Source of the DNA: Phycisphaerae bacterium
GTDB taxonomy: Bacteria; Planctomycetota; Phycisphaerae; SM23-33
Direction of reading: 5' to 3'
Assembly: GCA_011050235.1 (NCBI GenBank)
Contig: DRGC01000032.1
Coordinates: 30,042 to 94,041 of the forward strand
Length of the DNA stretch: 64,000 nt
Within the stretch, counting starts at the first letter, position 1. Every line of letters starts with the position of its first letter. Below, piece by piece: positions 104 through 48,189 of the stretch. A program made the position numbers and the translations under genes. The notes beneath the pieces were generated by a model. That model ran no database searches. It was not told where the DNA came from and was given only the letters and a program-made list of their open reading frames with translations.

Positions 104-187
104 ATGGGTCTTTCTCCTTCTCTTTCTGCCGAACGCTTTGCCGCTCAACGGGAGGGAAGTCCGTAGAGCGGCCGGTCGAGCGCCTGG

Positions 188-958: not shown

Positions 959-1097
959 GGGCCAGGCTATGCAGGATTCAGCATAACAAGGATATGGCCA
1001 TGCTCAACGGAAAAAGAAAACGTCCTGCCGACCCGACTCTTGGGCAGACCGGCGGGCCGGCTGATGGGCCTGCCCGCCGTAGGCGGGTGTGAGAGTT

Positions 1098-30619: not shown

Positions 30620-30850
30620 CCGTCATACCTCATGACACACATCGACCCGCCCGGACCGTGGGTTTCGTGGGACCATCATGTAACACATCGGCAAAACGGT
30701 CACCACAAAAAACATTCGCCCCCGCCCGAACCGCGGCCGCCCGTGAGCCGTAGGAACTGCAGCAACTATCGTCGGGGTCGTCCAGTGGGCCGCCCACGCG
30801 CGGCCCGCCCGCCCGTGCAGCGTCGAATAGGACCCGATCGGAGTCAGCGC

Positions 30851-31840
30851 ATGATCGCCAACGTTTTCCAGGGAATGCCGACTCGAGACGTGATGGTCCT
30901 TTTTTCGTTCCTGGCAGCGATCGGCGTGGTCTACGCGGCGACGGGCGTCATTGTGATCCGCTATCTTTGGCGATTGGCGATCGGGTCTAAGAAGCGCCCA
31001 ACGTCCGCTTGGCTGAAGTGGGGCCGGCGGGTCATATTGACTCTGGCCGTGGTGGGCGTGCTCTGCGGCCTGTACGGATGGCTGGTCGAGCCCTATTGGC
31101 TGGAGACGACGCACGCGCAGGCGCCGACCGCCAAGCTGCCGCCAGGCGCCAAGCCGATCCGCATCGTTCACATCAGCGACCTGCACTGCGACCCCAAGGT
31201 CCGCCTGGAAGATGAGCTGCCCCAAGCCGTCGCCGAGTTGAGGCCCGACATCATCTGCTTCACCGGCGATGCGGTCAATTCGCCCGCCGGCCTGGCCAAC
31301 TTCCGGCGATGCATGACGGCATTGGCCAAGATCGCGCCGACCTACGCCGTCTGGGGCAACTGGGAACACTTTTTCCCCACCCTCGACTACTACGGCGGCA
31401 CGGGCGTCCATCTCCTCGACGATACCTCGATCCAACAGACCATCGACGGCCAGCCTGTGACCATTGCCGGAATCCGTCACCGGCGTGACCTTCGATCCGG
31501 CATGCAGCGCGCCCTGGCGAGCATCGAGGGCGAAGGCCCGGTGGTGCTTCTGTGCCACATGCCCAGCATCATTCTCGAGCTGCCCGGCCGGGGTGTCGAC
31601 CTGTGCCTGTCCGGCCACATCCACGGCGGCCAGGTCGCCCTGCCGATCTATGGCGCGATGGTGACACTGACGCCGACGGGCAAGCGTTTCGAGCGGGGGC
31701 TATACAAACATGAGGACACGCACCTGTACGTTAGCCGCGGCTTGGGCATCGAAGGCGGCGGCAACGCGCCGCGCCTGCGATTCTGCGCCCGCCCGGAAGT
31801 GACGCTCATCGAACTGGTCCCCGACCGCCCGGCCCCCTAG
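30851..31840 (+). CDS. membrane-anchored metallophosphoesterase (calcineurin-like)
   Basis: Two N-terminal TM helices. Motifs IVHISDLHCD, FTGDAVN, GNWE and LSGHIHGGQ. It is the only genuine part of the 1343-aa ORF in the track. Confidence 0.7.
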   Translation: MIANVFQGMPTRDVMVLFSFLAAIGVVYAATGVIVIRYLWRLAIGSKKRPTSAWLKWGRRVILTLAVVGVLCGLYGWLVEPYWLETTHAQAPTAKLPPGAKPIRIVHISDLHCDPKVRLEDELPQAVAELRPDIICFTGDAVNSPAGLANFRRCMTALAKIAPTYAVWGNWEHFFPTLDYYGGTGVHLLDDTSIQQTIDGQPVTIAGIRHRRDLRSGMQRALASIEGEGPVVLLCHMPSIILELPGRGVDLCLSGHIHGGQVALPIYGAMVTLTPTGKRFERGLYKHEDTHLYVSRGLGIEGGGNAPRLRFCARPEVTLIELVPDRPAP

Positions 31841-34800
31841 GCCTGTGCGCCCCCTTGCCCCTCAGCCGACGACGTTCGCCGCGGCGCCTTCTGCGGCCAG
31901 GGGAGAATGAAGTCCAGGGCCATGGTCCGCAGCGAGCCCGTCTGCTGGGCGTTGGCGTGACGGCGGGCGATCTTCGCAAACTCCGGGAACCGGGCCTCAT
32001 CGGTATAGAACTCGATCATCGTATGCCCGTCGTCCAAACCGGCCTGTGTCCCATCGCCCAACAGCCAGGGCATCACCCAGCGCCCGTGGAACTCCCGTTG
32101 AATGCCCATGCGCGTGACGGCGAATGTCTCCGGGCTCTTTCGATAGCCAAGGAAGACGGCGACGATCGTCTCGCCCCTGAGCATCACGCGCGGGATGTTC
32201 GGGCTGAACTGGCGAGCCGGCGCCCCGGCCCCGTCGGCAAACCACTGGCGCAGGAACTCGTCCACCTGTTGCCAGGGCACGTCTCCAAGCGGCACGAGGC
32301 GGACGTCCTCGGGGATTTCCTTGCGGCGCCGATAACGGTCGACGATGCCCATGCACAGATCTCTGAACGTCACCCCGTCCATTATGTAGATCGATTCGAC
32401 CGTCGTCGTCTCGAAACTCAGCCGTTCCAGGCATTGCCGGAGCACCACCTGGCTCTCATCCTCGACAAGTGTCGACACCATCCGCTTGGCCCCGCCGGCG
32501 GCCGCCCGGGCCACAGCCGCGCGCATCAGGCGTGTCAGGAGCAGCGCCTCTTGCCCATCGCCCTGGGGAGCATCTGTTTGCTGACGCACGCTCAGTTTCA
32601 ACTTGATCGTATTGCCTGTGGGATCTTGAAGCTGCAGGACCACCGCGCCATGGACGTCGTTGACGCCGGCCGGATGTATCACCAGGACCTCCCGGTTGTA
32701 GGGATCGATGAACGGATTCTCGAACATTTGGCACAGCACGGGTTGATCCGAAGGCAACGTCGGCCGGACGATCCAGGTCGTCTGGCCCGGCGCGCCTTTG
32801 GCGGGGGCCCCCGCTTCGCCTGCGCCAGCCTCCGGCGAGAATGTCACCTCTCGTGCGGCGGCGTTTTCCGCCACGTAGTCGTCCAGGCACTCGTCGGCGG
32901 CGGCCAGGTCGTCGATGAACTGGCGCTGCCACTCGGCAATCTCCCGTTGGGCTTGTTGGATATGAGCATCACTGGCGGGAGGCGGCTCATCCAGGCCGCC
33001 ATCCGTTGAGGCCGACTTGCGCTGTGAAGGGCTGTCCCCGGCCTGCATCCGAGCCAGCGCTTCTTGTGCGGCCGTATGGTTCGGATCGATACCCAAGGCG
33101 GTCTCAAAGGCCTGTTTCGCGCGGTCGCAGTCGCCCAGCTCAGTCAGGGCCCTGCCCAGCGCCACGTGTCCGGCCGGGCGGGCGAAATCCACCCCCACAG
33201 CCTGCAGCGCCGCCTCGGCGGAAGGGGCGAACTGTCCCCAGCGATACAGGGCCTCCGATAGGCCCATGTGGCCCGGCCAGAAACCGGGGGCCAATTCGAC
33301 CGATCGCGTAAAGGCCTCAATAGCCCGCGGCAGGTGATCCGTCAGCAGACAGGCCCGGCCAAGATGGTAGAACAGTTCGGGAATCGGTGGGTCGTCCTCC
33401 GCCGCCTGTTCCAACAGGTCCATCGCCTGGTCGGTCTGTCCGCTGTGCAAGGCGATCAGGGCGGCCATCAACTTCCCGACCGGCTGGTCAGGGAACGACC
33501 GGGCGATCGGCGCCGCCAAGGCGAGGGCCTGGCGGACCTGCCCCCCGACATAGAGCGCGTGCGTTGCGGTCAGGGCCCTGGCTACGTGCAACGGATGGGT
33601 GTAGTACAGGCGAAGCAGCAGCGGCAGGGCCATCCTCTCGCGCGAAGAGCCCAGAAACGTTCGAGCCAGGTTCCACTCACGGTCCGTCCGGACGCCCGTC
33701 GCCGCCCGGTCCGCGTGGGCGGCGAAAAAACCGATCTCCTCGATCCATGAAGCCGGGGCGGCCAGGTGATCCGCCGGCGGGCGATGCGGCGGGGCCTGAT
33801 CCCACGACGCGGCCATCTGGATCGACAAAGGCGGCTGGCTGAAGGCCTCCGTTAGCACTCGCCCGTCCATGTCATCGCCCGGGGCCAGGCCGCACAGATG
33901 CAGAACGGTCGGACAGAGGTCGAGGCTATGGACGTTGTGAATCAACTCGCCTTCGACCACGCCCGGCGCCCGCATGACGAAGATACCTTCGCCTCGATAG
34001 ACCGAATCGAGCGGCATCAGTTGCGCTGCTCTGCGCCGAGGCCGTCGGGCAGGCGGCGCAAAGCTGCAGGCCGAGTACAGCACGATCGCAGCGTCGTCGC
34101 CGGCCAACTCCAACAGCCGTCCGAGGAGCAAATCACACAGCCGCACCGCAGCCGCCGCCACGCCGCTGAACAGTTCAAATCCCCGCATGTCCACCCACGG
34201 TAGGCGCGGGGGATGGTATTTCAGAAACTGCATCCACAACGCCTCAATAGCGGGATAGGTCACCGACGTGACGTCCCAGTCGGTCTTCTCCATCAGCCTG
34301 GTCACGACCGCGTGGATGGACAGGGTCTGGGAGACGATGGCGGCAATGGTCACCAGCCGCGGGTCGTGCGCATCGAACTGCCCGAAACGCGGGACGAACA
34401 GGGCCATCGTCTCGGCATCGATCTCTTCCAGGGAGACGACGAACTCCTTGAGGGATCCGAGATGATTGGCCGGCAGGACGCTGCCGAACGGCACGACGAA
34501 CGATGATTGATAGCTGGCGGGGATGTTTCGGAAGAACTCCGGGCTGACGAAGACACCGTTGACGGGCTCGGCCGGCGCGGTGGCGGGGAAACTGACGACG
34601 TTGCAGCGGCGCCCGCTCTGCGAAACGATCTCCCAGAATGCCTTGGCCCGGCGCGACAGGCTGTTGACGGCCTGCACCGCCCCGTTGCTGCGGACCTCAC
34701 TGGGCCCCAGAACGCCGTGTTTGTCGGCGCGCTTGCCGGTCGCGACGGTGTTATGCACGATCGGAGCGATCAGGGGTCCCTGGGTCAAGGGGGTCCCCAT

Positions 34801-34941
34801 CACCCCCTGGTCGACGAGGCGTTGGAGATTGGGCAACTGCCCGCTATCCAGCATCGGGGTGATCTGGCGCCACCCGGCTGAATCCCAGCCGACCATCAAG
34901 ATCCTGGTGCACTTGGCCTGACTCGAACTCATCATTTGCAT
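31837..34941 (-). CDS. 1034-aa protein: N-terminal AlkP-superfamily NPP/type-I-phosphodiesterase-like domain + TPR repeats + unassigned C-terminal domain (paralog A)
   Basis: ILMVGWDSAGW...TPMLDSGQLPNLQRL...HNTVATGKRADKHGVLG resembles the NPP motif around the catalytic Thr, but the Thr position is not conserved. Central TPR repeats. The C-terminal ~350 aa are unassigned, possibly GNAT-like. Confidence 0.6.
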   Translation of the reverse strand: MQMMSSSQAKCTRILMVGWDSAGWRQITPMLDSGQLPNLQRLVDQGVMGTPLTQGPLIAPIVHNTVATGKRADKHGVLGPSEVRSNGAVQAVNSLSRRAKAFWEIVSQSGRRCNVVSFPATAPAEPVNGVFVSPEFFRNIPASYQSSFVVPFGSVLPANHLGSLKEFVVSLEEIDAETMALFVPRFGQFDAHDPRLVTIAAIVSQTLSIHAVVTRLMEKTDWDVTSVTYPAIEALWMQFLKYHPPRLPWVDMRGFELFSGVAAAAVRLCDLLLGRLLELAGDDAAIVLYSACSFAPPARRPRRRAAQLMPLDSVYRGEGIFVMRAPGVVEGELIHNVHSLDLCPTVLHLCGLAPGDDMDGRVLTEAFSQPPLSIQMAASWDQAPPHRPPADHLAAPASWIEEIGFFAAHADRAATGVRTDREWNLARTFLGSSRERMALPLLLRLYYTHPLHVARALTATHALYVGGQVRQALALAAPIARSFPDQPVGKLMAALIALHSGQTDQAMDLLEQAAEDDPPIPELFYHLGRACLLTDHLPRAIEAFTRSVELAPGFWPGHMGLSEALYRWGQFAPSAEAALQAVGVDFARPAGHVALGRALTELGDCDRAKQAFETALGIDPNHTAAQEALARMQAGDSPSQRKSASTDGGLDEPPPASDAHIQQAQREIAEWQRQFIDDLAAADECLDDYVAENAAAREVTFSPEAGAGEAGAPAKGAPGQTTWIVRPTLPSDQPVLCQMFENPFIDPYNREVLVIHPAGVNDVHGAVVLQLQDPTGNTIKLKLSVRQQTDAPQGDGQEALLLTRLMRAAVARAAAGGAKRMVSTLVEDESQVVLRQCLERLSFETTTVESIYIMDGVTFRDLCMGIVDRYRRRKEIPEDVRLVPLGDVPWQQVDEFLRQWFADGAGAPARQFSPNIPRVMLRGETIVAVFLGYRKSPETFAVTRMGIQREFHGRWVMPWLLGDGTQAGLDDGHTMIEFYTDEARFPEFAKIARRHANAQQTGSLRTMALDFILPWPQKAPRRTSSAEGQGGAQA

Positions 34942-35034
34942 TGACGCCTTCGGTCACCGGACGGGGGGCCGCCGTCACAACCACTGCAGCCGCCGACGGA
35001 TGGCCGGGGAGCGCTCGAGCCAGGCCCGCTGAGG

Positions 35035-38000
35035 CTATGGTTTCTTCTGGCCCGGCTGCGACCAAGGCACGACGATATCCAGTGTCATGATCCACGTCCG
35101 GGCGAGTTCTTTGCCGCCCGTCCGACGGCCGATTCGGATCATGTCAGGAAAGACGCTCTCATCGGCATACAAGTGGATCGTCCGCAGACCGCTGTCGTAG
35201 CCGGCCTTGGCCCCGTAGCCGACAAGCATCGGCGTCGCCCAACCGTTCTGGTATTCGTCCAAGACGGCAAGACGCGGCGAAATCCATATGTCATCTTGCA
35301 CATGACCCACGTAGCCCGCGATGATCTCATCGCCGCGCAGGATCACCAGCGACAGACGCTCATCCAGGCCCAGTCGTCCGGGCCCCACACCGTCGTCGAA
35401 GAAGCCTTGGAAGAACTGGTCGACCTTGTGCATGGGCACATCCCGAAACGACACAACCCGGACGTCGTCTGGGATCACCTGCCGCTGCCTGCAGCGCTCG
35501 ACGACCCTCAGACACCGATCGCGTGTTGCGGCCATGTCCATGCCAAAGACCATCTCGCGTTTCTTGACCCGGAAGCCCACTCGTTCGAGGGATTCTCTCA
35601 GTTGCCCTTGTCCTTCAGGGGAAAAGGCGTACGAGACCGCCGTTGCCCCGGAGGCGACCGCACGAATGATGCCCGCACGAATCAGCGCCCATCGCGCGGT
35701 GTTCTCGTCTAGGCCGACATCGGCCGCCGCGGCGAGGGAGGCGAGATAGGGCACAAGCGCGATGCGCTTGCCGGTGTTGTCGCCTGTCCGCAGGGATACG
35801 GCGCCGATCAATGGGATTTCGCCCTCCCGGTGAAGGACAAAGACGTCATGGCGATGGTGTTCCGTCAGCACCCGGGAGGTGATTTCGCTCACCTGGCCAA
35901 AATCAGCAGGCATGATGGGGCGTACGACAAGCCCCATGTCGGTCAGCATCGGCCCGGATATCTCGCTCGATTCCGCCGGCGGCGCCTGGTCGTCCTGGTC
36001 GGCCAGTTGGCTGGCGTTGGTGGCAAGATACGCATCCAACTGCTGATCCGCTTGTCGGAAGCAGTCGATAAAGTTGTTGGCCCAGATCGAGACCTCTCGA
36101 CGGGCGCCGGCGACACCCAGGCGCAATTGGTCCACATCCCAGCGTGACGGCCCCTCACCGGCCAGGGGCAGGGCGTCCTCCTCTTCGACGTCCTCAAGCT
36201 CCCCACCGGATTGCAGGTGGGCCAGTCGGTTCTTGGCCAGCGTGAAATTCTCATTGAACCTCAGGGCGTTGGCGTAGGCCTGCTTGGCTTGCTCCGGATC
36301 GTCGAGTTTTTCCAGACACATGCCCAGCATATAGTGGGCCGGCGCGCTGGAGAAGTCCACCGACAGGGCCTGCAGCGCCTCGTCGGCGGCCGCTTCGTGC
36401 TCTCCCGACGCGAGGCGCACCCGACTGCGTCCCAGATACCCGGGGATGCAGGTCGAATCGATCTCGATGGCCTGGGTGAAGCAGTCCATGGCCCGGCCCA
36501 GTCGGTGCGCTCGCCGATGGACTTCCCCCAGGTAGAGGTACAACTGGGGGATCGGCGGATTGTCTTTAGCGGCATCCTCGAACAGATCCAGGGCCTCATA
36601 GTCGCGGCCTTCGCTCTGGGCGATGACGCCGGCCATGCACTTCCCAGCCGGGGACTGGCCATGAACGGACACAAAGTTCCGCATGACGGTGATCGCTTCT
36701 TCGGTGAGGCCGTGGAGATATAGCGACTCGGCCACCAACGGCGCCATCTCCGTCCAGAACGGGGTGACATAGTATAACCGGGTCATCAGAGGCAGGGCCA
36801 GATCGGGGCGCGAGGAGTTCAGGCAGGCTTCGGCCTGGTTCCAGTCGTTCTGCATCTGCACCCATAGCGCATTCCGACCGCCATGCGCTGAAGTAAAGGA
36901 CATCTGCTCTGTCCACGGGATCGGCTGGCGGTCCTCGGGCAACGCCGGTCTGACGGGCGGACGTGTCTCCCAGGTCTTGATGGTCTTGGCCTGAGGCAGT
37001 GGTTGAGCGAACGCGTCGGTCAAGACGCGACCGTCCATATCCTCCGGCACGGCGACATTGCACAGGGCCAGCACCGTCGGACAGAAGTCCGTCTCTCGGA
37101 CGCCATGAATCAACTCATCACGTCGCGTGCCGTCGGCCCGCATGACGAAGATGCCCTGCGGCCGATGCAGCTGCGCTTCCGTCCGAGGCCCGGACACTGG
37201 GGTCTGTGACACCCGATGATGCGCCTGATACGCCCGCGGGGAATAGATAATGACCGCGGCATCCTCGCCGGCCAACGCCAGCACGCGCCCCAGAAGCAAG
37301 TCACACAGGCGGACCGAACTGTTGACGACGTCCTTGAACAGGTCGAACTCCTCTGGGTCCACCCAGTCCAGACGAGGGGGATGGTACTGCAGGAATTTTC
37401 GGGAGAACACCTCGATGGCGGGATAGTTGACGCTCATGACGCGCCACTGCGAGTTTTCCATCAGCCACGTCGCCACCGCATGCACGGACAGCGTTTGCGT
37501 CACGGCGCTGGCAATCTGAGCCAGGCGATCGTCACGGAACGACAACTCGCTCATCCGCGGCACGAACAAGCCGACGGTGGGCGGATCCAGATCTTCCAGA
37601 GCGACGATGAACTCCTGAAGCGTCGACGCCAAATCAGCGGGCCAGACACTGTCTTCCGGCACGTGCACCGGGCTCCAACTGCTGGTCCGCTGGCTGCCAA
37701 AGAATGCACGACCGACAAAGCTGCCGCTCGTTTCTTCGGCGGGCTCGGCCGTGGGAAAATTGACCACGTTGCATAGAACGTCATTCTGCGAGAGGATCTC
37801 CCAGAACGCTTTGGCGCGGCGTGATAGGCTTGTGATCGGCCGGAACGACTGCCCGTAGCTGCCCATCTCGTGGGTGCCGAATATGCCATGCTTTTCCGGA
37901 TACTTGCCAGTCGCCAGAGAGGAGTACACCATCGGCTCCATTACAGGTCTGACCGATGTCATCGACCCCATCACCCCTTGCTCGAGGACCCGGGCCAGAT

Positions 38001-38145
38001 TGGGCAGTTCGCCACGGTCCAGCAGAGGGGTGATCACGTCCCAGCCGGCCGCATGCCAGCCAACCAGCAAGACTTTTTGATCCTTCGGATTACTCTTAGG
38101 CGCCACGGTGGTACTCCTGTACGAGGTGCACTCGGCGTGCTTCAT
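35035..38145 (-). CDS. 1036-aa paralog B of the NPP-like/TPR protein
   Basis: Same architecture. LLVGWHAAGW..TPLLDRGELPNLARV...SSLATGKYPEKHGIFG is a very NPP-like block. About 45-50% identity to paralog A over the N-terminal domain, by eye. Confidence 0.6.
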   Translation of the reverse strand: MKHAECTSYRSTTVAPKSNPKDQKVLLVGWHAAGWDVITPLLDRGELPNLARVLEQGVMGSMTSVRPVMEPMVYSSLATGKYPEKHGIFGTHEMGSYGQSFRPITSLSRRAKAFWEILSQNDVLCNVVNFPTAEPAEETSGSFVGRAFFGSQRTSSWSPVHVPEDSVWPADLASTLQEFIVALEDLDPPTVGLFVPRMSELSFRDDRLAQIASAVTQTLSVHAVATWLMENSQWRVMSVNYPAIEVFSRKFLQYHPPRLDWVDPEEFDLFKDVVNSSVRLCDLLLGRVLALAGEDAAVIIYSPRAYQAHHRVSQTPVSGPRTEAQLHRPQGIFVMRADGTRRDELIHGVRETDFCPTVLALCNVAVPEDMDGRVLTDAFAQPLPQAKTIKTWETRPPVRPALPEDRQPIPWTEQMSFTSAHGGRNALWVQMQNDWNQAEACLNSSRPDLALPLMTRLYYVTPFWTEMAPLVAESLYLHGLTEEAITVMRNFVSVHGQSPAGKCMAGVIAQSEGRDYEALDLFEDAAKDNPPIPQLYLYLGEVHRRAHRLGRAMDCFTQAIEIDSTCIPGYLGRSRVRLASGEHEAAADEALQALSVDFSSAPAHYMLGMCLEKLDDPEQAKQAYANALRFNENFTLAKNRLAHLQSGGELEDVEEEDALPLAGEGPSRWDVDQLRLGVAGARREVSIWANNFIDCFRQADQQLDAYLATNASQLADQDDQAPPAESSEISGPMLTDMGLVVRPIMPADFGQVSEITSRVLTEHHRHDVFVLHREGEIPLIGAVSLRTGDNTGKRIALVPYLASLAAAADVGLDENTARWALIRAGIIRAVASGATAVSYAFSPEGQGQLRESLERVGFRVKKREMVFGMDMAATRDRCLRVVERCRQRQVIPDDVRVVSFRDVPMHKVDQFFQGFFDDGVGPGRLGLDERLSLVILRGDEIIAGYVGHVQDDIWISPRLAVLDEYQNGWATPMLVGYGAKAGYDSGLRTIHLYADESVFPDMIRIGRRTGGKELARTWIMTLDIVVPWSQPGQKKP

Positions 38146-38286
38146 TCGACACAGACAGAATCGGCATCAATCGGACCTTCCTTAAAGAAATCCTTCTCAG
38201 CGCGACCACAACACCTCTTGTAAGCAGTCACTACATCGCTAGCGGCGCCGGGGGGAGAGATCTGCCTCGCGCCGGTGGGCCCGGGC

Positions 38287-40266
38287 CTATGGGCCGCGAC
38301 GTTTGTGAAGCTCTGCCCAGTCGTTCGTGAAACTCTTGAGTATAACCGGAAGCAGCAGAGTCGGTTCGACCATATAGCGAAGGATATCATACAAGAAGAC
38401 ATTGGGGCTGGCGCTCGCGTTCCGCAGGCGGAACCGACGGTAGCCGAGGTCGTAGACACGCTTGAGTTCCATGACGGTGAAATTACGGGATCGCGGGCCG
38501 GGCGCCAACCTGGCCCTCGGTGTTGACGATTCGTCTTGACCGCCCTCTGGCGTGCTGCCCCAGGGGGCGTCGTCGTTGACCACGATCTCGATTCGGTCGC
38601 GATCGAGTCTGGCCAGCAAATCCAGATCGAACCCGTCTGAGGGAGATACGGCAACGACGTCGAATCGTTCGGCCAGCGCGTTGTAATGCTCCGCTTGTCC
38701 GCAGCCGCCTTCGGCGATCGTCTTGGCCAGCGATGCCGAGAGCCTCAGCTCCGGATGTCGAGATCGAATGTGATCAGCCAGCACGTCGCTGGCGACCTCT
38801 ACGCCGTTGAGGCGACTTTCGTGATCGAGGATCTCCAGGATGCCATTGCCCGACTCATCGCCAAGATCGGCCGATTGGAGTTGGTGGCTGTTGAAGATGC
38901 AGAACACCCCGATATCCATCTTATTGAAACGCCCAACGACCTCAGCCCACCCCGCCAAGTTCAGCCTGGATCTTGCCGATCGGGGCAGCCCGTTCCAACG
39001 CACCTGAAGTTCACCGTAAACGCCATCGACGCTCGTCTGACACTTGAGCTCTTCAGTCAACACACCAAGGACGTTACGGATCACCTGTCCGTGGGCGGTC
39101 AGGCCCTCGATCGACCAACGACCATCCGGCCATAGCGGATGTCGACCCTCCATTCCGGTCGGCAGGCCGGTTCCAGCCATGATGGCCGGGCCCACGACTG
39201 TCGGCAGGGCTGGCGCAGGCTCTGCGGGGCATGCCTCGACGGCGGTCGACGCGGGGACACCGGTCTTCGCTTCCTGCAGGTGGGCGCGGCGGACATTCCT
39301 GACCGATTCCAGGGCCTGGCGGGTGACTTGGCCTGAAACGAAGGCCTTGAAGATGACGGGCGTAAGGAGTTCCGGCTCGACCGAGAAGCGAAGCAGGTCG
39401 AACAGGAATGTGCCCGGCATGTTCTGACGCCCCTGCAGCTTGAAGCGGCGGAAGCCCATCTCGTAGACCCGCAGCAAATGCGCCATGGAGAAGTTGCAGG
39501 ACCGCACGACCGGCGTAAGCCGCCCCCCGGGCGCTCGGCAGTACTTCTTTCGCGTGTATTCGTACTCCAGATCGGAGGCATCGGGTAATCCGGACTTTAT
39601 CAGCTCCGCCATCACCTGGTAGTCGTTTATGCGGTGCGTGCACAGATAGGCACAGTCCTCATTGACCATGATCTCGGTCTTCTCGCGGTCGAGCTGCTCC
39701 AGCAGGTCATACTCAAACCCGTCATCGGGATGCACCATGACGCCGTCGTACCGCTTCAGGACCGAGCGATAGTAGCCCAAATCGCCGCGCCCCTCTTCTT
39801 CGGTGACTTTGACGATCGAGGCCGTCAGCCTCAACTCCGGGTGCCTTTGGCGAACGTAGTCCAACAGCAGATCACTAGCCAAGATCACACCGTTGAGGCC
39901 CAGACCATTGTCGATGCCCTCCAGCAGCATGTTGCAGTTGGCGTTCGCCAGATCGCTCTTGTCCAGCAAGTGATTGCTGAAGGTGAAGTAAACCCCGATC
40001 CCCACATCGTTGAATGACCGCACCATTGCCTCCAGGGCTTCCGGTGTCGGTACCCGCACGGTGCTGATCCGACCGCAATTCCACGGGACCTCAGGCGCTC
40101 CATGAATGCTGTCAAGATTCAAGTGGCAGCCGTACCGATCCTCAAGGACGCTGTAGACCTGGAGGATCAACTGGTCATGCACGAACAGGCCGGTGAGGTT
40201 CCAGTGCGCCTCCGGCCAAAGAGGATTCCTCGCTTGATAACCGAATGGCAGTGAGTCCGTCATCAC
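38287..40266 (-). CDS. 659-aa protein made of two tandem copies of an uncharacterised ~300-aa module (paralog 1)
   Basis: Module hallmarks are NPLWPEAHWN / HPLWPDGRWS, FNDVGIGVYFTFSNHLL / FNKMDIGVFCIFNSHQL, HPELRLTAS / HPELRLSAS, VNEDCAY / VNDDAPW, RVYEMGFRRFKLQ / RVYDLGYRRFRLR and EPELLTPVIFKAF / EPTLLLPVILKSF. A beta/alpha pattern suggests a TIM-barrel-like fold. Confidence 0.55.
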   Translation of the reverse strand: MMTDSLPFGYQARNPLWPEAHWNLTGLFVHDQLILQVYSVLEDRYGCHLNLDSIHGAPEVPWNCGRISTVRVPTPEALEAMVRSFNDVGIGVYFTFSNHLLDKSDLANANCNMLLEGIDNGLGLNGVILASDLLLDYVRQRHPELRLTASIVKVTEEEGRGDLGYYRSVLKRYDGVMVHPDDGFEYDLLEQLDREKTEIMVNEDCAYLCTHRINDYQVMAELIKSGLPDASDLEYEYTRKKYCRAPGGRLTPVVRSCNFSMAHLLRVYEMGFRRFKLQGRQNMPGTFLFDLLRFSVEPELLTPVIFKAFVSGQVTRQALESVRNVRRAHLQEAKTGVPASTAVEACPAEPAPALPTVVGPAIMAGTGLPTGMEGRHPLWPDGRWSIEGLTAHGQVIRNVLGVLTEELKCQTSVDGVYGELQVRWNGLPRSARSRLNLAGWAEVVGRFNKMDIGVFCIFNSHQLQSADLGDESGNGILEILDHESRLNGVEVASDVLADHIRSRHPELRLSASLAKTIAEGGCGQAEHYNALAERFDVVAVSPSDGFDLDLLARLDRDRIEIVVNDDAPWGSTPEGGQDESSTPRARLAPGPRSRNFTVMELKRVYDLGYRRFRLRNASASPNVFLYDILRYMVEPTLLLPVILKSFTNDWAELHKRRGP

Positions 40267-40441
40267 AGGCGGCCCTTTCTCAACACGTAACCTACCGTCA
40301 TCATTCCCTTAAAGGCAGCTAGGCCCAAGCCGGCTTGGACGGCTCAGTGAATTATAATGTCCTGCCCGCCTGCCGACAAACGAGAACCCATCCCCGGGTG
40401 CATCGGAATGGGTCGACGGCGGCCGGTCCGCCCCGTCGTCC

Positions 40442-42472
40442 TCACGGCGATTGGCTCGCCTGCAAGCCAGTCCCATCGAGGGCGACGGACGCCTGCTCGC
40501 GCGCCCAGTCGTTCGTGAAGCTCTTGAAGACCACCGGCAGCAGCAGGTTTGGCTCGAGCGTATAGCGAAGGATGTCATACAAGAACAGATTGGGGTTGCG
40601 GCCGGCGCTTTGCAGGCGAAACCGACGATAGCCGAGGTCGTAAACCCGTTTGAGTTCGGCGGTGGTGAAGTTGCGCGATCGGACGTCGGCGTCCAGAGCC
40701 GACATCGGCATCGCCCGGCGGTCGGCCGACCCCTTCGGGGCGCCGTCCGCCGCGCCGCACCACGGGGCGTCGTCGTTGACCAGGATCTCGATTCGGTCGC
40801 GATCGAGTTGGGCCAACAAGTCCTCGTCGAAGCCGTCCTCGCTGCATAGGGCGACCGTGTCGAACCGTTTGGCCAGTGACTGGTAATGCTCCACTCGCCC
40901 GCCGCCGCCTTCGACTATCGTCTTGACCGCCGAGGCCGTCAGCTTCAGTCCCGGATGTCGAGATCGAATGTGATCGGCCAGCACGTCGCTGGCCAGGCCC
41001 ACACCGTTGAGCCCGGATCCGTCATCGAGAATCTCCAGAATGCGATTGCCCATGTCGTCGTTCAGGTCGGCCGATGCGATCCGGGTATCGTTGAACAGGC
41101 AACGAACGCCGACGCCCATGTCATTGAATTGTCGGACGGTCCGAGCCCACAGTTCCATGTTCATTCCGCCCGCCCCCGACTGACGCGCCCCGTTCCAGCC
41201 TGCACCAGGCCCGCCGCCGCACACGCGCTCAACATTCGGGCGACCGTCGAACCGATCGGCCAACAGCGCCAGCATTTCGCGGATCAGACGTCCGTGGGTG
41301 GCCATGCCCTCAATCGTCCAACGCGCATCCGGCCAAAGCGGGTGTCGAGTTTCGGCGCCGGTCGGCAACCCATCGCCGGCCACGACGGGCGCCTGCACGA
41401 TCATCGGGCGGGGGGGCGCCAAATCGCCCTGGCGCGCCTCGTCACCGCCGGCCGCGCGAGCCGCATCGGGCGCCCGCTGGTAGGCGGCCCGGGTCTTGGT
41501 GACCGCTTCGGCGGCCAGACGGCTGACGCGCCCGGAGATGAAGGCTTTGTAAATGACCGGCGCGAGGATGTCCGGCTCGATGGCGAAGCGAAGCAGCGAG
41601 AACAGGAACGTCGCCGGCATGTCTTGTCGCCCCTGCAGCTTGAAGCGGCGAAAGCCCATCTCGTAAACGCGCACCATCTGCGCGGTGGGGAAGTTGCAGG
41701 ACTGAATAGCCGACGTGAGCTTTTTCAGCGGCATGCGGCAATGGCGGCGCTCCATTACCATGTAGGGATTATCGGGCCCGGGGAGCCCGCCCGCCTTCAG
41801 CACCTGGGCCATCACCTCATAGTCCTTGACGCGGTTGGGGCACTGAAAGGCGCAGTTCTCATTGACCATGATCTCGATCTTGTCGCGGTCGAGCTGGTCC
41901 AGCACCTCGCAGTTAAACCCGTCGTCGGGGTGGACCATGACACTGTCGAACCGCGGAAGGACCGACTGATAGTAGGCGACATTGCCGCGCCCGCGCTCCT
42001 CGGTAACCTTGATGATAGAGGCCGTCAGCTTCAGCTCCGGGTGCCTCCGGCGAATGTGATCGTACAGCAGGTCACTGGCCAGGATCACGCCGTTGAGGCC
42101 CAGGCCGTTGTCGATCGACTCCAACAAGCGGTTGCACGCCCGGTCGTCCAGATCGTTCTTGTCCAGCAGGTGGTTGCTGAAGGTGAAGAAGACCCCGATC
42201 CCCACGTCGTTGAATGTCCGGAGCATTGCCTCCAGAGCCTGCGCTGTCGGCGCCGGCGTGAAGCTGAAGCGACCACAGTTCCACGGAACATCCGGCGCGC
42301 CGTGAATGCTGTCGAACTTCAGAGGACACCCGAATCGCTCATGGAGGAGGCTGAACACCTGGAGGGTCAGCAGATCATGGACGAATAGCCCCGTCAGATT
42401 CCATCTGGCCTCTGGCCAGAGAGGATTGCGGGCGGCCAGGCCGGACGGCAATTGGGAAATCATTGGCAACAT
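40442..42472 (-). CDS. 676-aa paralog 2 of the duplicated-module protein
   Basis: About 65-70% identical to 38287..40266 over the first module, by eye. Same two-module architecture. Confidence 0.55.
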   Translation of the reverse strand: MLPMISQLPSGLAARNPLWPEARWNLTGLFVHDLLTLQVFSLLHERFGCPLKFDSIHGAPDVPWNCGRFSFTPAPTAQALEAMLRTFNDVGIGVFFTFSNHLLDKNDLDDRACNRLLESIDNGLGLNGVILASDLLYDHIRRRHPELKLTASIIKVTEERGRGNVAYYQSVLPRFDSVMVHPDDGFNCEVLDQLDRDKIEIMVNENCAFQCPNRVKDYEVMAQVLKAGGLPGPDNPYMVMERRHCRMPLKKLTSAIQSCNFPTAQMVRVYEMGFRRFKLQGRQDMPATFLFSLLRFAIEPDILAPVIYKAFISGRVSRLAAEAVTKTRAAYQRAPDAARAAGGDEARQGDLAPPRPMIVQAPVVAGDGLPTGAETRHPLWPDARWTIEGMATHGRLIREMLALLADRFDGRPNVERVCGGGPGAGWNGARQSGAGGMNMELWARTVRQFNDMGVGVRCLFNDTRIASADLNDDMGNRILEILDDGSGLNGVGLASDVLADHIRSRHPGLKLTASAVKTIVEGGGGRVEHYQSLAKRFDTVALCSEDGFDEDLLAQLDRDRIEILVNDDAPWCGAADGAPKGSADRRAMPMSALDADVRSRNFTTAELKRVYDLGYRRFRLQSAGRNPNLFLYDILRYTLEPNLLLPVVFKSFTNDWAREQASVALDGTGLQASQSP

Positions 42473-42694
42473 CTCTGTCCTACGACGGGTTCGTGTCTAT
42501 TGTAGGAAATGCGGCCAGCGCGAGCAAACGAGATTCAACTCGCCAGGCCCTCGATGGCCGGGCCGGGGCATCGGTGAGAAGAAAAAACCGCAGGCGTCGG
42601 GTGATAACACCCGACGCCTGCGACCAAATCTTCAGATTGCGAATCCATCCTCAGCCTCTATCGCGCCAAGGATAACCCGCAACCGGAGCTAGAG

Positions 42695-43990
42695 TTACGC
42701 ACGCTTCCTTCGGTGCAGCAGCCCTACGGCGCCCAGGGCCAGCACAGTCAGCGTGGCCGGTTCGGGGACACCACCAGCGCCCGGTCCCGACGAGCCAAAG
42801 GCCTGCTTAAGAATCGCAAGGTCCGTGGCGTCGATAGTGCCGTCGCCGTTGGCATCGCCGAGCTCGAAGCCGGGCAGGATGGGCCGGCTGCCGTCCTCGG
42901 GGAAGTAGCCTCCGGTCCCGAAGTTCGCCTTCAGGATGGCCAGGTCCGTGCCGTTGACGGACATATCGCCGTTGAAGTCGGGGACGATTCGTATCACATC
43001 ATCCCCAACAAGCTCCGTGCCGTCAAGCAGCTGGCCGGTCAGTTCCAGATCGGTCATTCCCGGCAGGATTCCCAGCGACTGCGTCAAAAACTGCATGACC
43101 AAGTCATCGATCCCATCGTCATTCACGTCCTCGAAGTCGGCCTGCCATATGCCGTTGGAGTTCTGAACGACGTTGGCGTCGTTCAGCTCAACCGTCGACA
43201 CGTCGATGTCAGCCACGTCCAGGTCTTCGGTGCCGAAGATAACAACAGGCGTCTTGCCGATCGACTTGAGGTTGATGGGGTTCTCATCGCTGTCAGGCTT
43301 GATGTCTATGTCTATTGGTATGAACGGCGGCGGGACTTCGCCACCACCGGCATAGACAGCCCGACCGGGAATATCCGAGAACGCGAACTCATTCAACCCG
43401 ACGGCCCAGTACGCCGTCATGCTGATGTCCGCCCAGCCATAGAAGCGGTCGGCGCCGACATCGGCGTACAAGCCGATGGTGCCGCCACCGCCAAAGGGCC
43501 ACTCGCCATGGAACCAGAAGTACCAGCCGCCCAGGCCGCCCGTGTCAGTCACGGAATCATCGGACCAATTGCGACCACCAGCCAACGTGTCGCCGATTTC
43601 GTAGCCTCCGCCAAGCCTGCCGACGTTCCATACATTGCCGCCAGCGACGTAGCCTACGTTGGAATTGGTGCCGTCACCGACCTGAAGGGTCGTGGCGTCT
43701 TTCCGGTCATATCCATACCAATAGAAGTCCTGTTCCTGGAAGGTGAAACTGTCGGCATCCTGCCCTAACGACAGAAGTCCTGTGTTGGCGGTGTTCACCA
43801 CGACCGTCCCGTCCATCTTGAACGAGAGCATGTCCTGTCGCCAGTTGCTCGTGCCGTCCCACCAGCCCGCGCCGCCATTGTTGAAGACGTTCATGGCAGC
43901 GTTGGCGGGAACAGCCTGGGTGGCCAAAACGGCCGCACCAGCCGCCAGGGAGTAAGCTCCCAGCTTCTTTGCTAAATTGCCTTTTCTCAT
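42695..43990 (-). CDS. PEP-CTERM protein with dockerin-like Ca-binding repeats
   Basis: Signal peptide. Two DxNGDGxIDxxDLAILKxxFG repeats of dockerin/EF-hand type. The C-terminus is VPEPATLTVLALGAVGLLHRRKRA (PEP-CTERM). Confidence 0.65.
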   Translation of the reverse strand: MRKGNLAKKLGAYSLAAGAAVLATQAVPANAAMNVFNNGGAGWWDGTSNWRQDMLSFKMDGTVVVNTANTGLLSLGQDADSFTFQEQDFYWYGYDRKDATTLQVGDGTNSNVGYVAGGNVWNVGRLGGGYEIGDTLAGGRNWSDDSVTDTGGLGGWYFWFHGEWPFGGGGTIGLYADVGADRFYGWADISMTAYWAVGLNEFAFSDIPGRAVYAGGGEVPPPFIPIDIDIKPDSDENPINLKSIGKTPVVIFGTEDLDVADIDVSTVELNDANVVQNSNGIWQADFEDVNDDGIDDLVMQFLTQSLGILPGMTDLELTGQLLDGTELVGDDVIRIVPDFNGDMSVNGTDLAILKANFGTGGYFPEDGSRPILPGFELGDANGDGTIDATDLAILKQAFGSSGPGAGGVPEPATLTVLALGAVGLLHRRKRA

Positions 43991-44561
43991 AATCCTTCTC
44001 CTTCTCTGCGGATACGGGAAGGGGTTGTCTGATCAGAACAACGTACCCGAATCCTTAATAGTAACACTCTCGTTGTGATCTGCTCCTTCTGCCAATGACC
44101 ACCCGCGTGGCCACTCGACACTTCTTGCCCGCTACCTCATAGAAATGCTAAGCAAACGACAAGAAGGTAATGTTTCTGAGATCTGCGAAACAGCCACTCC
44201 ACGAGGCTGTCCTCTCGATTGAATAGATTAACACAAACTTGTACAGCGCGTCAAGCAATTAACCCGCGATCGGCAAAAAATTACACTGATTTACAAGACG
44301 ACGTATCTTATTGATGTATCAACCCTTATCGATCACCCCCCCCCTTCCCATGAACGCTTTTGGTGAGAAGAACCCGCCTTTTCCTTTAAGGTTTTCCTCT
44401 CAGACAGCTCAAACCGCGCCGCGAGCCCCGACACCCACTGACGCAGCCGCCGGCGGCCCGGCCGGGAATGAAACGGGCCCTTCGAACTCCGCGACAAAGC
44501 AACGCGGGCGGATGTGATCGCTCCGCGCCCGCTCGTATCGGTTTGTGAGTGTGCGATGAGT

Positions 44562-45800
44562 TCATCGACGACGTGACACCTTGCCGCGCTTGACCTTCTT
44601 CCCCCTGCCCTTCGCCATCAAGCGGCGGAAGTCGGCGTTGGCCTTGCGGCGGACGCCCTGCCCCTTGCCCGTCGAAAGCTTCCGCTCCAGGCGGTTCATC
44701 AGGCGCTCCATCTCGGCCGCATCGACCGGCAGGTCGACGGTCTTTTCGCTGTAGCCCGCCAGATGCATCGCGTTGGACAGCTCCAGCTCGTTCAGCGCCT
44801 GTCGGCCATCGGCGAAGTCGAAGGGCTTCTTGCCCGTGAGGATCAGGTGCACGAAGCCCCGCGTGATTTCGATGTGCCCGTCCGGGCGATTCTTTACCGG
44901 CACGTCGGTCCACGTGATGCCCTGCTCCGCCCCGCCAGCCATCGCGTTGGCCGAGGTGAAGATGTGCTTGCTGACCGGCATCTTGAGCTTGCCGAGTTTG
45001 ATCTTGCCCCACTCCTCCAGAACGATCGTGCCCTTGTCGCCGCAGATCATGAACTGCTCGTAGCCGGGCTCCTCGGCCGTGGTCGCATAAATGTAGCCCA
45101 CCTTGCCCTTGCCGTAGTCCAGCAGGAAGTTGGCGCAGTCCTCCACCTCGATCTTGTGGCGCCGCGTGGAGATCAGCCCCAGCACACGCTTGGGCATCCC
45201 GACGATCCACTGATACAGGTCCAGATGGTGCGGGGCCTGGTTGATCAGCACGCCGCCGCCCTCGCCGTCCCACGTGCCGCGCCACGCGCCGCTGTCGTAA
45301 TACGCCTGCGTGCGGAACCAGTTCGAGCAGATCAGCTGCGCCCGAAAGACCTCGCCGATCGCGCCGCGGTCGATGAGCTTCTTGACCGTGATCATGTCGG
45401 CCCGCGCGCGCTGGTGGAGCATTACGCCCAGGTGCACCCGGCGCTTCCTGCATTCGGCGATCATCGCGCGGGCGTGGCCGACCGTGCTCGATAGCGGCTT
45501 TTCGCACATCACGTGCAGACCCGCGCGGGCGGCGCGGATCGTCAGCGGCGCGTGCCAGTAGTGCGGCGTCGCCACGATCACGGCGTCGCACAGGCCCGAG
45601 TCGATCATCTCCCTGCCGCTGGCAAACCAGGCAACGTCGTACTTCTCGCCGAAGGTCTTCGCCCTATCGGCGTCGATGTCCGCCACCGCTGTGAAGCTGA
45701 AGCGCCGATCCTTGTCGGCGGACATGATCTCGGCGTGACAGCCACCCATCATGCCCAGCCCGATGATGCCGAAACGAACGTGCTTGAGTTTCTTCGCCAT
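44562..45800 (-). CDS. Gfo/Idh/MocA family oxidoreductase with Lys/Arg-rich C-terminal tail
   Basis: Start at MAKKLKHVRFGIIGLGMMGGCHA. Rossmann GxGxxG, EKP motif and a C-terminal alpha/beta domain are present. The tail is KGRGKKVKRGKVSRRR. Confidence 0.8.
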   Translation of the reverse strand: MAKKLKHVRFGIIGLGMMGGCHAEIMSADKDRRFSFTAVADIDADRAKTFGEKYDVAWFASGREMIDSGLCDAVIVATPHYWHAPLTIRAARAGLHVMCEKPLSSTVGHARAMIAECRKRRVHLGVMLHQRARADMITVKKLIDRGAIGEVFRAQLICSNWFRTQAYYDSGAWRGTWDGEGGGVLINQAPHHLDLYQWIVGMPKRVLGLISTRRHKIEVEDCANFLLDYGKGKVGYIYATTAEEPGYEQFMICGDKGTIVLEEWGKIKLGKLKMPVSKHIFTSANAMAGGAEQGITWTDVPVKNRPDGHIEITRGFVHLILTGKKPFDFADGRQALNELELSNAMHLAGYSEKTVDLPVDAAEMERLMNRLERKLSTGKGQGVRRKANADFRRLMAKGRGKKVKRGKVSRRR

Positions 45801-45891
45801 CAGTGGCTCCTGTCTGCGGATCAACTCGTTGCGAGGCGGCCAGTCTAGGTCTCGCCCCCCAGGATTGCAAGACGCCCCGCCCGCACCTAGT

Positions 45892-47082
45892 ATGGCGGCC
45901 ATGAGCAACGTCTGGGTCAAGATCGAGAGGCTCACCCGCCCCGAACAAGCGTTGAAAGTCGCCGCCATGGGGGCCGACGCGATCGGGTTGGTCTTCGCCG
46001 AATCGCCGCGGCGCGTGACAATCAAGCAGGCCCAGGCCATTGTCGCCCCCCTGCCGCCGGCGACCCAGACCGTCGCCCTGTTCGTCAACACCGAGGTCGC
46101 CGAGATCAACCGCATCGTCGAACAGCTCCATCCCACGTTCGTCCAACTCCACGGCGACGAGCCGCCTGAGATCGTCCGGTGGATCGACGCGCGGTGCATC
46201 AAGGCCTTTCGCATCCGCAATGCCGCCTGGGCCGACGAGGTGCAGAGCTGGCTGGACGGCCTGCTCGATATCAACGATGTCGCCGCCATTGTGCTCGACG
46301 CCTACAGCCCTAAACGCCGCGGCGGAACGGGCAAGCGGTTCAACTGGCAGTGGGTGGCCGCTGCCCGCGACGCCCGCCGGCTCGAACACTGGCCGCCCAT
46401 AATCCTCGCCGGAGGTCTGAACGCCGACTGCGTCGCCGACGCCGTCCGCGGGCTCCAGCCGTTCGGCGTCGATGTCGCCAGCGGCGTCGAACGTTCGCCG
46501 GGCATCAAGGACATGAAGAAAGTCGCAGCCTTCATCGCCGCCGCCGGCAGCGTCCACCCGCCCCCCGGCGATACAGCCATCGACCGATGGCTGCGCAGCG
46601 GCCGGCGGACGAAACTGCTGCGACACCTCGACGCGCATCCGCAGTTGAAACGCCGACGGCCTTGGGGCCCGTCCGTGCTACACCGAGCTTCCCGCGCCAA
46701 GAAGCGACAGGCCCTGACACGGATGTTGATCGCCCACGGCGTGTGTGTTGACCAACGAGACGGCCTGGAGATGACGCCGCTGATGACGGCAGCCTCCGAC
46801 AACGACGTCGAGATGATCAGACTTCTTCTGGCACAAGGGGCCGACGCCAACGCCTGCAACTGGTCCAGCGAGACGGCCTTCAGCTACGCCTGTTGTTACA
46901 ACTGCTTCGAGCCAGCCAAACTCCTCCACGAACATGGTGTCGAGATCAACCGCCCCGACACGCACGGCGCCACGCCCCTGGACTGGGCTAAGTACCACGC
47001 CTCGAAGCGATTCTACGACTGGCTGATAAGCATCCACTGCGTCCACCGCGCCGAACCCCCCGGCCACTGCCCGCGCCGATAA
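45892..47082 (+). CDS. trpF: phosphoribosylanthranilate isomerase fused to C-terminal ankyrin repeats
   Basis: The N-terminal ~210 aa (MSNVWVKIERL...GADAIGLVFAESPRRV...ILAGGLN) match TrpF. The C-terminal ~170 aa contain 3-4 ankyrin-like repeats (TPLM.AA..N..EMIRLLLAQGADANA, GATPLDWA). An alternative start lies at 45901. Confidence 0.65.
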   Translation: MAAMSNVWVKIERLTRPEQALKVAAMGADAIGLVFAESPRRVTIKQAQAIVAPLPPATQTVALFVNTEVAEINRIVEQLHPTFVQLHGDEPPEIVRWIDARCIKAFRIRNAAWADEVQSWLDGLLDINDVAAIVLDAYSPKRRGGTGKRFNWQWVAAARDARRLEHWPPIILAGGLNADCVADAVRGLQPFGVDVASGVERSPGIKDMKKVAAFIAAAGSVHPPPGDTAIDRWLRSGRRTKLLRHLDAHPQLKRRRPWGPSVLHRASRAKKRQALTRMLIAHGVCVDQRDGLEMTPLMTAASDNDVEMIRLLLAQGADANACNWSSETAFSYACCYNCFEPAKLLHEHGVEINRPDTHGATPLDWAKYHASKRFYDWLISIHCVHRAEPPGHCPRR

Positions 47083-48071: not shown

Positions 48072-48189
48072 CGCCGCGGGCCAGCCCCGTGGGAGCCAGC
48101 CCGCTGTATTCAGAAGGATGGCGGCCCGGCAGCTTCAAAGAACCGCCTAAGAATCATGCGGGTCAATCGTAATAGAGGATAGGGAGAAC

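Follow-up and report, generated by a model that had tools for sequence, protein, structure and literature searches.

Can five large neighbouring genes, four of them forming two pairs of duplicates, make up a single functional system? The question is raised by a locus in a 64,000-nt stretch of DNA from a Phycisphaerae bacterium, analysed as a whole and called the window in what follows. An earlier note, made from the letters alone, had singled out five consecutive minus-strand genes at positions 31837-43990. The genes are real: they are successive open reading frames (ORFs) of that strand, with a GC3 of 0.75-0.81, which is of the coding type in all five, and g3 is identical to a public protein (P0009). 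They encode one protein A (g1), two proteins B (g2 and g3) and two proteins C (g4 and g5). Each gene was duplicated individually, as the note had proposed, with g2 and g3 60% identical over 655 aa, less than the 65-70% estimated by eye, and g4 and g5 38% identical over about 1030 aa. Judged by the tree, in which g3 groups with L020_B2 and g5 with L011_C2, both duplications are old, the paralogue lineages being orthologous across genomes. A 333-aa minus-strand ORF (30623-31624) was considered and rejected as a further gene. It matches no family and is left uncalled in the identical public contig, where a Metallophos gene, convergent with the cluster, occupies positions 30851-31840 of the plus strand; g5 is therefore the final gene of the cluster.

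Table 1. Positions in the window of the genes, domains and putative signals of the cluster.
Feature	Residues	Positions	Strand	Remarks
Region upstream of g1		43991..44561	-	571 nt; GC 0.53, against 0.64 for the whole window
Gene A (g1)		42695..43990	-	431 aa
g1 signal peptide	~1-32		-	
g1 family-specific N-domain	33-222	43325-43894	-	
g1 dockerin	338-397	42800-42979	-	Dockerin_1, within an inserted segment
g1 PEP-CTERM anchor	408-431	42698-42769	-	ends RRKRA
Intrinsic terminator 3' of gene A		42576..42625	-	consensus scan; 18-bp GC-rich stem, 4-nt loop, T-run
Promoter-like element before g2		42499..42528	-	TTTGCT-17-TACAAT; aligned across six loci (A5), L005 deviating
Ribosome-binding site of g2		42473-42481	-	AGGA, downstream of TTTGCT-17-TACAAT
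Gene B1 (g2)		40442..42472	-	676 aa; tandem U32-like TIM-barrel protein
g2 N-barrel	~1-335	41468-42472	-	conserved C207, C211, C245, C259 (41696-41854) and FKLQGR
g2 C-barrel	~366-660	40493-41377	-	without the Cys set
Second promoter-like element, before g3		40351..40380	-	TTTGTC-17-TATAAT; consensus match 10/12, best in the region
Gene B2 (g3)		38287..40266	-	659 aa; 658 aa from the ATG at 40263; two-barrel layout as g2
Gene C1 (g4)		35035..38145	-	1036 aa; 1023 aa in the public call
g4 NPP-type AlkP domain	~24-385	36991-38076	-	catalytic residues replaced
g4 TPR repeats, then long helix	~440-645	36211-36828	-	
g4 tandem GNAT fold	~735-1030	35056-35943	-	
Gene C2 (g5)		31837..34941	-	1034 aa; architecture as g4
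g5 AlkP-like domain		33826-34908	-	
g5 TPR repeats		33037-33654	-	
g5 GNAT		31888-32778	-	

The first gene had been described as coding for a PEP-CTERM protein with two dockerin calcium-binding repeats, and Pfam places both features above cut-off: Dockerin_1 (PF00404) in two stretches (E 9.4e-14; 51.8 bits for a cut-off of 22.9) and PEP-CTERM (PF07589; E 4e-5; 24.0 bits for 20.7), the latter also matched in NCBIfam (TIGR02595; 20.5 bits for 16). With an N-terminal signal peptide, the PEP motif, a transmembrane helix and a basic tail (VPEPATLTVLALGAVGLLHRRKRA), protein A has the features that define PEP-CTERM substrates. Among the larger ORFs of the window, which were scanned against Pfam, none encodes an exosortase. 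The dockerin insert is missing from most A orthologues; A proteins from other loci, ~240 aa long, share 48-56% identity with the N-domain. Invariant residues of the family are mostly glycines and aromatics, with no invariant lysine, serine or threonine among them as an obvious acceptor.

Protein B is visible through its fold. Neither g2 nor g3 matches a Pfam or NCBIfam family or a PDB sequence (phmmer), PF01136 being absent at E<=1, and the sole U32 trace in sequence models is UbiU at E 0.19 (NCBIfam), below every U32 cut-off. The protein nevertheless folds as two tandem TIM barrels, of the (beta-alpha)8 type that characterises the U32 family (PF01136), and in structure comparison only the U32 "peptidase" Mk0906 (PDB 5d88) matches it closely, scoring well above glycosidases. 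The internal duplication is real, since one half of g2 matches the other at 38% identity (E 2e-75), and the reading of g2 and g3 as two copies of one module each stands. Relatives of B make up an unnamed sister family of U32, with more than 1000 representative sequences and a Cys signature of its own, mainly of three residues. PF01136 matches 15 of 60 single-barrel relatives at E<=0.01, its gathering score is passed by 2 of 10, and weak NCBIfam matches to UbiU and TrhP also occur among the relatives. In an HMM search, the profile of the B family finds two collinear matches in Escherichia coli UbiU, including FKLqGR against VKIEGRQ; when the same profile is aligned to single sequences with hhalign, UbiU receives a weak probability of 7% and UbiV none.

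The cysteines of the N-barrel are spaced CX3CX33CX13C and have no counterpart in the C-barrel. In a 60-member family C207, C211 and C245 are conserved at 97-98% and C259 at 45%, and this set probably holds an Fe-S cluster. The two kinds of barrel also exist as unfused gene pairs, one Cys-bearing and one Cys-less, with overlapping stop and start (L017, L028 and L029). Around the unfused relatives L013, L015, L016 and L017, the neighbouring genes include no shared partner that hints at a substrate. In the window itself, a 276-aa ORF (47241-48071) was considered as a U32-like gene, as it stands in place of a single-barrel gene of the syntenic locus L009, but it is unrelated to the family.

In protein C, the AlkP-like domain and TPR repeats that had been recognised by eye are borne out by Pfam, with Phosphodiest (PF01663) at 50.7 bits in g4 and 40.3 in g5 (cut-off 23) and TPR repeats in both. 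The phosphodiesterase-like domain is also degenerate, as had been suspected: the nucleophile position is a glutamate in g4 and an alanine in g5, and in the clade ending in GNAT neither the nucleophile serine nor the D-H metal pair is present in any of 26 sequences, while H228 is found in one. By contrast, all catalytic residues are kept in 40 of 40 sequences of the wider family. Judged from these residues, the AlkP domain of C is catalytically dead. Its C-terminal region has the two-lobed GNAT fold; a profile search of this region against the PDB gave chance matches only, and PF13480 is matched by four of nine GNAT domains (best E 1.9e-4). In canonical GNATs the loop that binds the pyrophosphate of acyl-CoA reads Q/R-x-x-G-x-G/A. 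C, aligned by eye, has EYQ.GWATP or EFHGRWVMP at this place (..GW[AV]..), the tryptophan being near-invariant, and the use of acyl-CoA is therefore uncertain. The GNAT halves otherwise retain many invariant residues. Modules that had been left without a family thus remain so in the case of g2 and g3, as far as sequence families go, but each now has a fold, either a U32-like TIM barrel or a tandem GNAT.

These assignments bear on what the earlier note had made of the cluster, namely an extracellular module for polymer processing or surface remodelling, with hydrolase-like barrels and phosphodiesterase-like scaffolds as its components. Protein A is indeed a surface protein with a dockerin, and in one locus (L004) a sulfatase gene follows the cassette. 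However, B and C have neither signal peptide nor membrane segment, nor even an N-terminal hydrophobic segment, so that the idea of extracellular hydrolases is not supported. Furthermore, glycosidases come far below U32 as fold matches, conserved cysteines clustered in this way are typical of Fe-S proteins of the cytoplasm, and the AlkP active site is lost. We consider this proposal very unlikely.

Is there a system at all? The core of the cluster is an A-B-C cassette, the copy number of which varies between loci. C comes after a fused B in all eight loci, while A lies directly upstream in six; in a seventh it is found on the same strand at a distance of about 6 kb (L007/L012 have no adjacent A gene). 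This conserved three-part cassette, which occurs in a narrow set of Planctomycetota from sediments, is present here in duplicated form, and the five genes belong to a co-conserved unit, as had been supposed. To be sure, the genes might be unrelated, merely adjacent and tandemly amplified: a shared pathway is not known, copy numbers differ, and the flanking genes are housekeeping genes, different at each locus. This would fit poorly with a B-C order that is maintained across proteins diverged to 47-50% identity, with intergenic signals that are conserved, and with three families matched in rarity (19, about 28 and 26 clusters among 5.8 billion, that of A accounting for 26), and mere adjacency appears to us highly improbable. 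The modules do belong to known superfamilies, yet no established pathway joins them, and the genes are conserved together.

Belonging together does not imply a common transcript. The intergenic gaps from g1 to g5 (222, 175, 141 and 93 nt) are not especially short, although they had been taken as such. Upstream of g1, what had been described as a 560-nt AT-rich leader is AT-rich indeed and may carry the g1 promoter, a candidate for which (TTGACG-18-TAATCT, 44254-44225) was read by eye. Yet the region is not conserved in comparison with five other loci, has no Rfam match and no tRNA, and is unlikely to precede a single operon. Following gene A, a hairpin and T-run occupy the same position at all six A-B loci, and also at L038. 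The stem displays compensatory changes in 8 of 15 pairs, and 93% of the cells of the alignment pair, a proportion that falls to 26-44% once the partners are slid. Next comes the conserved promoter-like element before g2, a putative promoter in view of its sequence. The similar element before g3 is weak taken alone, since the region holds four consensus sites where 2.5 are expected. Given the terminator that follows A and the promoter-like element that precedes B, both conserved, the cluster is not one simple operon, and the co-transcription that had been suggested is unlikely.

What, then, could the three proteins do? What the data establish is the folds, the loss of active-site residues, the co-occurrence of the genes and the terminator; Fe-S binding, the chemistry and the identity of the substrate we infer. 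Our leading explanation, held tentatively, is that B as a cytoplasmic redox enzyme and C as an acyltransferase act on protein A before its export, or else on its anchor. B, in which a barrel with a probable Fe-S Cys set is fused to a degenerate one, would correspond, in a single chain, to U32 heterodimers of the UbiU-UbiV type, and by analogy would carry out O2-independent redox chemistry of the hydroxylase type. In C, also predicted to be cytoplasmic, the dead AlkP domain and the TPR repeats probably form a substrate-binding scaffold for acyl transfer by the tandem GNAT. Expressed from what is probably their own promoter, B and C would act jointly on one substrate, the likeliest being A before export, or a moiety to which A becomes attached. 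A itself would be exported with its family-specific N-domain and its exosortase-type anchor, its gene being closed by a strong terminator. As A is a Sec substrate, modification in the cytoplasm would need to come before export. That B is the first U32-type Fe-S enzyme acting on a protein, and together with a TPR-guided GNAT forms a cytoplasmic system that, without O2, hydroxylates or otherwise oxidizes and then acylates a dedicated exosortase-sorted protein before export, is a bolder and improbable version of this scheme.

All characterised U32 enzymes use quinones or RNA bases, not proteins, and B and C could likewise modify a small molecule, a lipid or RNA (a cofactor, an amino sugar or a nucleobase, for example, might be hydroxylated without O2 and N-acylated), A being a co-inherited or co-regulated neighbour. 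Amino-sugar and mycothiol acetyltransferases are among the nearest GNAT folds, A forms a transcription unit of its own, at L007/L012 B and C occur without an A gene next to them, and at L006 a methyltransferase adjoins C. However, the N-domain family of A matches B and C in rarity and is found adjacent or nearby in seven of eight loci, the surroundings of the cassette show no further conserved biosynthetic gene at the loci compared, and TPR repeats bind peptides more often. On balance we find a substrate other than A somewhat unlikely. Another track is to see B and C as largely non-catalytic: in the cytoplasm they would act as chaperones or targeting factors, keeping A or its basic C-terminal tail ready for export or exosortase sorting. 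This would account for an AlkP domain dead throughout the clade, a C-barrel devoid of the Cys set and a non-canonical GNAT cofactor loop, and secretion chaperones often contain TPR domains (there are weak NCBIfam matches to SycD/LcrH and SctY). It is hardly in line with the near-complete retention of three cysteines in a family with over 1000 representatives, which argues for a functional metal site, nor with the invariant residues kept in the GNAT halves, and it would be uncommon for chaperones of about 1000 aa to persist as two ancient paralogues; we deem it improbable.

If A, B and C cooperate, U32-type chemistry would extend to a new substrate class, and the cassette would offer a testable example of exosortase cargo modification, which is still little understood. 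Should protein maturation be the correct reading, anaerobes would have a new post-translational modification pathway for PEP-CTERM proteins. If they do not cooperate, four large "hypothetical" proteins have gained a fold-level annotation. Among the papers searched, none joins 'U32' and 'exosortase'. The form in which an active and a degenerate barrel are fused sits within the unnamed sister family of U32, tied to a pseudo-phosphatase-TPR-GNAT protein and a dedicated PEP-CTERM protein.

How does the cassette compare with known systems? In U32 enzymes a 4Fe-4S cluster is held by conserved cysteines, with motifs such as CX6CX15CX3/4C and CX6CX16CX38C, and UbiU and UbiV form a heterodimer (PMC6747719). 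The family includes the O2-independent Fe-S hydroxylases UbiU/UbiV, TrhP and RlhA; it is large, its few characterised members perform O2-independent hydroxylation, and in the ubiquinone pathway this uses prephenate as the oxygen donor. B shares with it the TIM-barrel fold, collinear matches around beta4-alpha4-beta5 and the hK-h-x-GR motif, conserved cysteines past later barrel strands and, with UbiU-UbiV, a two-barrel design. In contrast to the heterodimers, it fuses both barrels in one chain, the second without cysteines, its own spacing replaces the four-Cys pattern CX6CX15CX3/4C, with only three cysteines kept family-wide, and its partners A and C are unlike any U32 context described so far. 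C, for its part, has AlkP-like and TPR regions homologous to those of AlkP-TPR-sulfotransferase proteins (30-43% identity over about 60% of g4), whose N-termini, inspected by eye, also have no signal peptide. Those proteins, however, keep their catalytic residues (40/40) and end in Sulfotransfer_1/3, where the C clade has lost them (26/26) and ends in a tandem GNAT. The sulfotransferase family is itself uncharacterised, its source labels being, where named, Planctomycetota, Verrucomicrobiota or Terriglobia. From tandem-repeat GNATs (MAB_4324, MshD, glucosamine N-acetyltransferases, clavulanate ORF14) C differs by an identity of only 11-13%, by its non-canonical cofactor loop and by the fusion of the domain behind a dead AlkP and TPR repeats. 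Finally, A resembles exosortase-sorted PEP-CTERM proteins in its signal peptide, C-terminal PEP motif, hydrophobic helix and basic tail, and stands apart from them by an N-domain that forms a very small family tied to B and C.

The five-gene cluster of the earlier note is confirmed, and its genes can now be assigned: g1 (A), a surface protein in which Dockerin_1 is combined with a PEP-CTERM anchor; g2 and g3 (B), each with two U32-like barrels; and g4 and g5 (C), combining AlkP-like, TPR and GNAT regions. The identity of 65-70% estimated there for g2 and g3 was too high (60% measured); g4 and g5 are 38% identical over their whole length. The window has a GC content of 64%, a marine-sediment metagenome contig (LCGC14) is identical to it over the region compared, and another annotation of the same protein assigns it to a Phycisphaerae MAG. 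The flanks are of housekeeping type (leuS, pyruvate kinase, aspartokinase, mnmG, AdoHcy hydrolase, a trpF-ankyrin fusion). Searches of the whole window for tRNAs and Rfam families gave no match. A Metallophos gene is convergent with g5, the two overlapping by 4 nt at the g5 stop; the minus-strand frame of 333 aa at this place is absent from the gene calls of the identical contig and is probably spurious. In another locus (L017) an unfused U32-like pair likewise has a Metallophos gene beside it, which may be coincidence.

Features of the window and of related loci (L numbers, in other contigs)
Feature	Sequence	Position	Strand	Remark
g1	window	42695-43990	-	ORF, coding-type codon composition
g2	window	40442-42472	-	ORF, coding-type codon composition
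g3	window	38287-40266	-	ORF, coding-type codon composition
g4	window	35035-38145	-	ORF, coding-type codon composition
g5	window	31837-34941	-	ORF, coding-type codon composition
GC-rich hairpin (18 bp) and T-run (terminator)	window	42625-42576	-	after g1
Metallophos (calcineurin-like phosphoesterase), 329 aa	window	~30851-31840	+	called in identical public contig
333-aa ORF	window	30623-31624	-	no family match
TrpF (PRA isomerase)-ankyrin fusion	window	45751-47082	+	kept in related genome (L009 587-1768)
276- and 157-aa ORFs	window	47241-48663		no family match
1350-aa protein, three C-type lectin domains	window	12678-16730	-	unusual for bacteria
Left edge	window	1-1000		GC 0.46, ~0.64 elsewhere
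Split C genes	L011	9413-12478, 12608-15751		
Dockerin-bearing A variant	L004	3533-4672	-	
Dockerin-bearing A variant	L020	3252-4571	-	
Dockerin-bearing A variant	L040	200-1387		
Single-copy ABC locus and surroundings	L005	1-8742, 20639-21965		
Single-barrel U32-like gene	L009	1976-2980		50% identical to g2 N-barrel

HMMs of A, B and C were built and all fetched loci scanned with them. C follows fused B (two barrels in one chain) in all eight loci having downstream DNA (the window, L004, L005, L006, L007/L012, L011, L020 and L021), bearing out the co-conservation predicted earlier. The gene immediately upstream is A in the window, L004, L005, L006, L020 and L022, as well as in L038, a locus found from the A side; in L011/L036 the A gene is on the same strand, ~6 kb downstream. 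The layout is ABC in L005, ABBCC in the window, ABBBC in L004 and L020, ABC-methyltransferase-C' in L006 and BCC in L011, where both C genes are split at the same TPR/GNAT junction into an AlkP-TPR ORF and a helix-GNAT ORF; these could be natural splits or assembly frameshifts. No other gene is consistently present in these neighbourhoods. The family of the A N-terminal domain comprises 26 clusters, a rarity matching that of B and C. In neighbour-joining trees B1, B2 and B3, and C1 and C2, are lineages common to different genomes, and the duplications are therefore old and retained. In two loci the cassette is preceded, at a distance of a few kb and on the other strand, by a second, dockerin-bearing A variant (379-439 aa), which in L040 stands apart from any B gene. 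The genes around the L005 locus are of kinds typical for strict anaerobes (NifB/FeMo-cofactor-like domains, CbiA/ParA-ferredoxin fusions, a glycyl-radical enzyme).

The terminator after g1 recurs in each of the six A-B loci aligned and in L038; its stem has changes on both sides in 8 of 15 pairs, and 93% of cells pair, against 26-44% with the partners slid. Directly downstream comes a TTTGCT-17-TACAAT element, alignable across loci, followed by an AGGA ribosome-binding site; a similar element, TTTGTC-17-TATAAT, precedes g3. Because of the conserved terminator and the aligned promoter-like element, A is probably its own transcription unit, possibly highly expressed, with B and C reached via read-through or separate initiation. 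The AT-rich leader noticed upstream of g1 is real (GC 0.53) but unconserved, and matches no RNA family.

In A, a signal peptide is combined with a C-terminal helix. Neither B nor C begins with a hydrophobic segment, and both are for this reason placed in the cytoplasm, which argues against the extracellular hydrolase role, in polymer processing or surface remodelling, proposed in the earlier note; that functional guess is, overall, largely unsupported.

The N-terminal domain of C passes the Phosphodiest model (PF01663) and is followed by TPR repeats. About 28 database clusters match C along its full length; in more than 200 others the match stops after the first 60%, and sulfotransferase domains form the end. 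Aligned to Xanthomonas NPP, the nucleophile position is Glu in g4 and Ala in g5. Asp, Ser nucleophile, D..H, D-H pair and His are all kept in 40/40 members of the wider family, as against 12/26 (Asp), 0/26 (Ser), 1/26 (H at the D..H position), 0/26 (D-H pair) and 12/26 (His) in the full-length clade, whose AlkP domain is, by its sequence, a pseudoenzyme, the "degenerate phosphodiesterase" recognized earlier. A large uncharacterised ~900-aa family (P0048-P0139), joining AlkP/NPP with all catalytic residues intact to TPR and Sulfotransfer_1/3, comes, where the source names an organism, from Planctomycetota, Verrucomicrobiota or Terriglobia; the C proteins appear to descend from it.

The halves of g2 are 38% identical to each other (E 2e-75), and g2 and g3 match nothing in Pfam, NCBIfam or PDB except a trace of UbiU (E 0.19). 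Only 19 clusters among 5.8 billion resemble a full-length B protein, while a profile search of 1.84 billion representatives gathered 1110 relatives, nearly all single-barrel (300-330 aa) and matching the N-terminal half. Peptidase_U32 (PF01136) is matched at E<=0.01 by 15 of 60 single-barrel relatives, its gathering score is passed by 2 of 10, a few match the UbiU or TrhP NCBIfam models, and E. coli UbiU has two collinear matches to the family profile, one pairing FKLqGR with VKIEGRQ. On these matches, the ~300-aa module belongs to an unnamed family that is distantly sister to U32. The U32 enzymes UbiU-UbiV, TrhP and RlhA are O2-independent hydroxylases in which four Cys bind 4Fe-4S, UbiU and UbiV forming a heterodimer (PMC6747719; PMC11574389). 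C207, C211 and C245 of the g2 N-barrel are 97-98% conserved in this family, and C259 45% family-wide, 95% within fused proteins; their spacing, CX3CX33CX13C, is not that of the U32 motifs. In g2 and g3 these Cys are missing from the C-terminal barrel, whose FRLQ motif is degraded; the more basal fused proteins of L006 and L012 keep both Cys sets. In unfused pairs (L017, L028, L029) a Cys-bearing gene precedes a Cys-less one, stop and start overlapping. Given the Cys-less barrel and these pairs, B resembles an "active plus degenerate" heterodimer joined in one chain. L009, syntenic with the window (trpF-ankyrin ... AdoHcy hydrolase ... response regulator-GAF), has a single-barrel U32-like gene whose place is taken in the window by the unrelated 276- and 157-aa ORFs.

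The folds, the loss of active-site residues, the shared occurrence of the genes and the terminator lead us to infer a pair of cytoplasmic enzymes. B would be a U32-like Fe-S redox enzyme and C a GNAT acyltransferase guided by its TPR repeats and pseudo-phosphatase, both acting on one substrate tied to A, most likely A prior to its export, or the molecule that exosortase joins it to. The principal alternative, with a metabolite, lipid or RNA as the target of B and C and with A only a linked neighbour, draws on the fact that all known U32 enzymes act on such substrates; as a third possibility, B and C may be mostly scaffolds or chaperones. No paper that we found connects U32 proteins with exosortase systems, and the cassette is a new variant assembled from known superfamilies.
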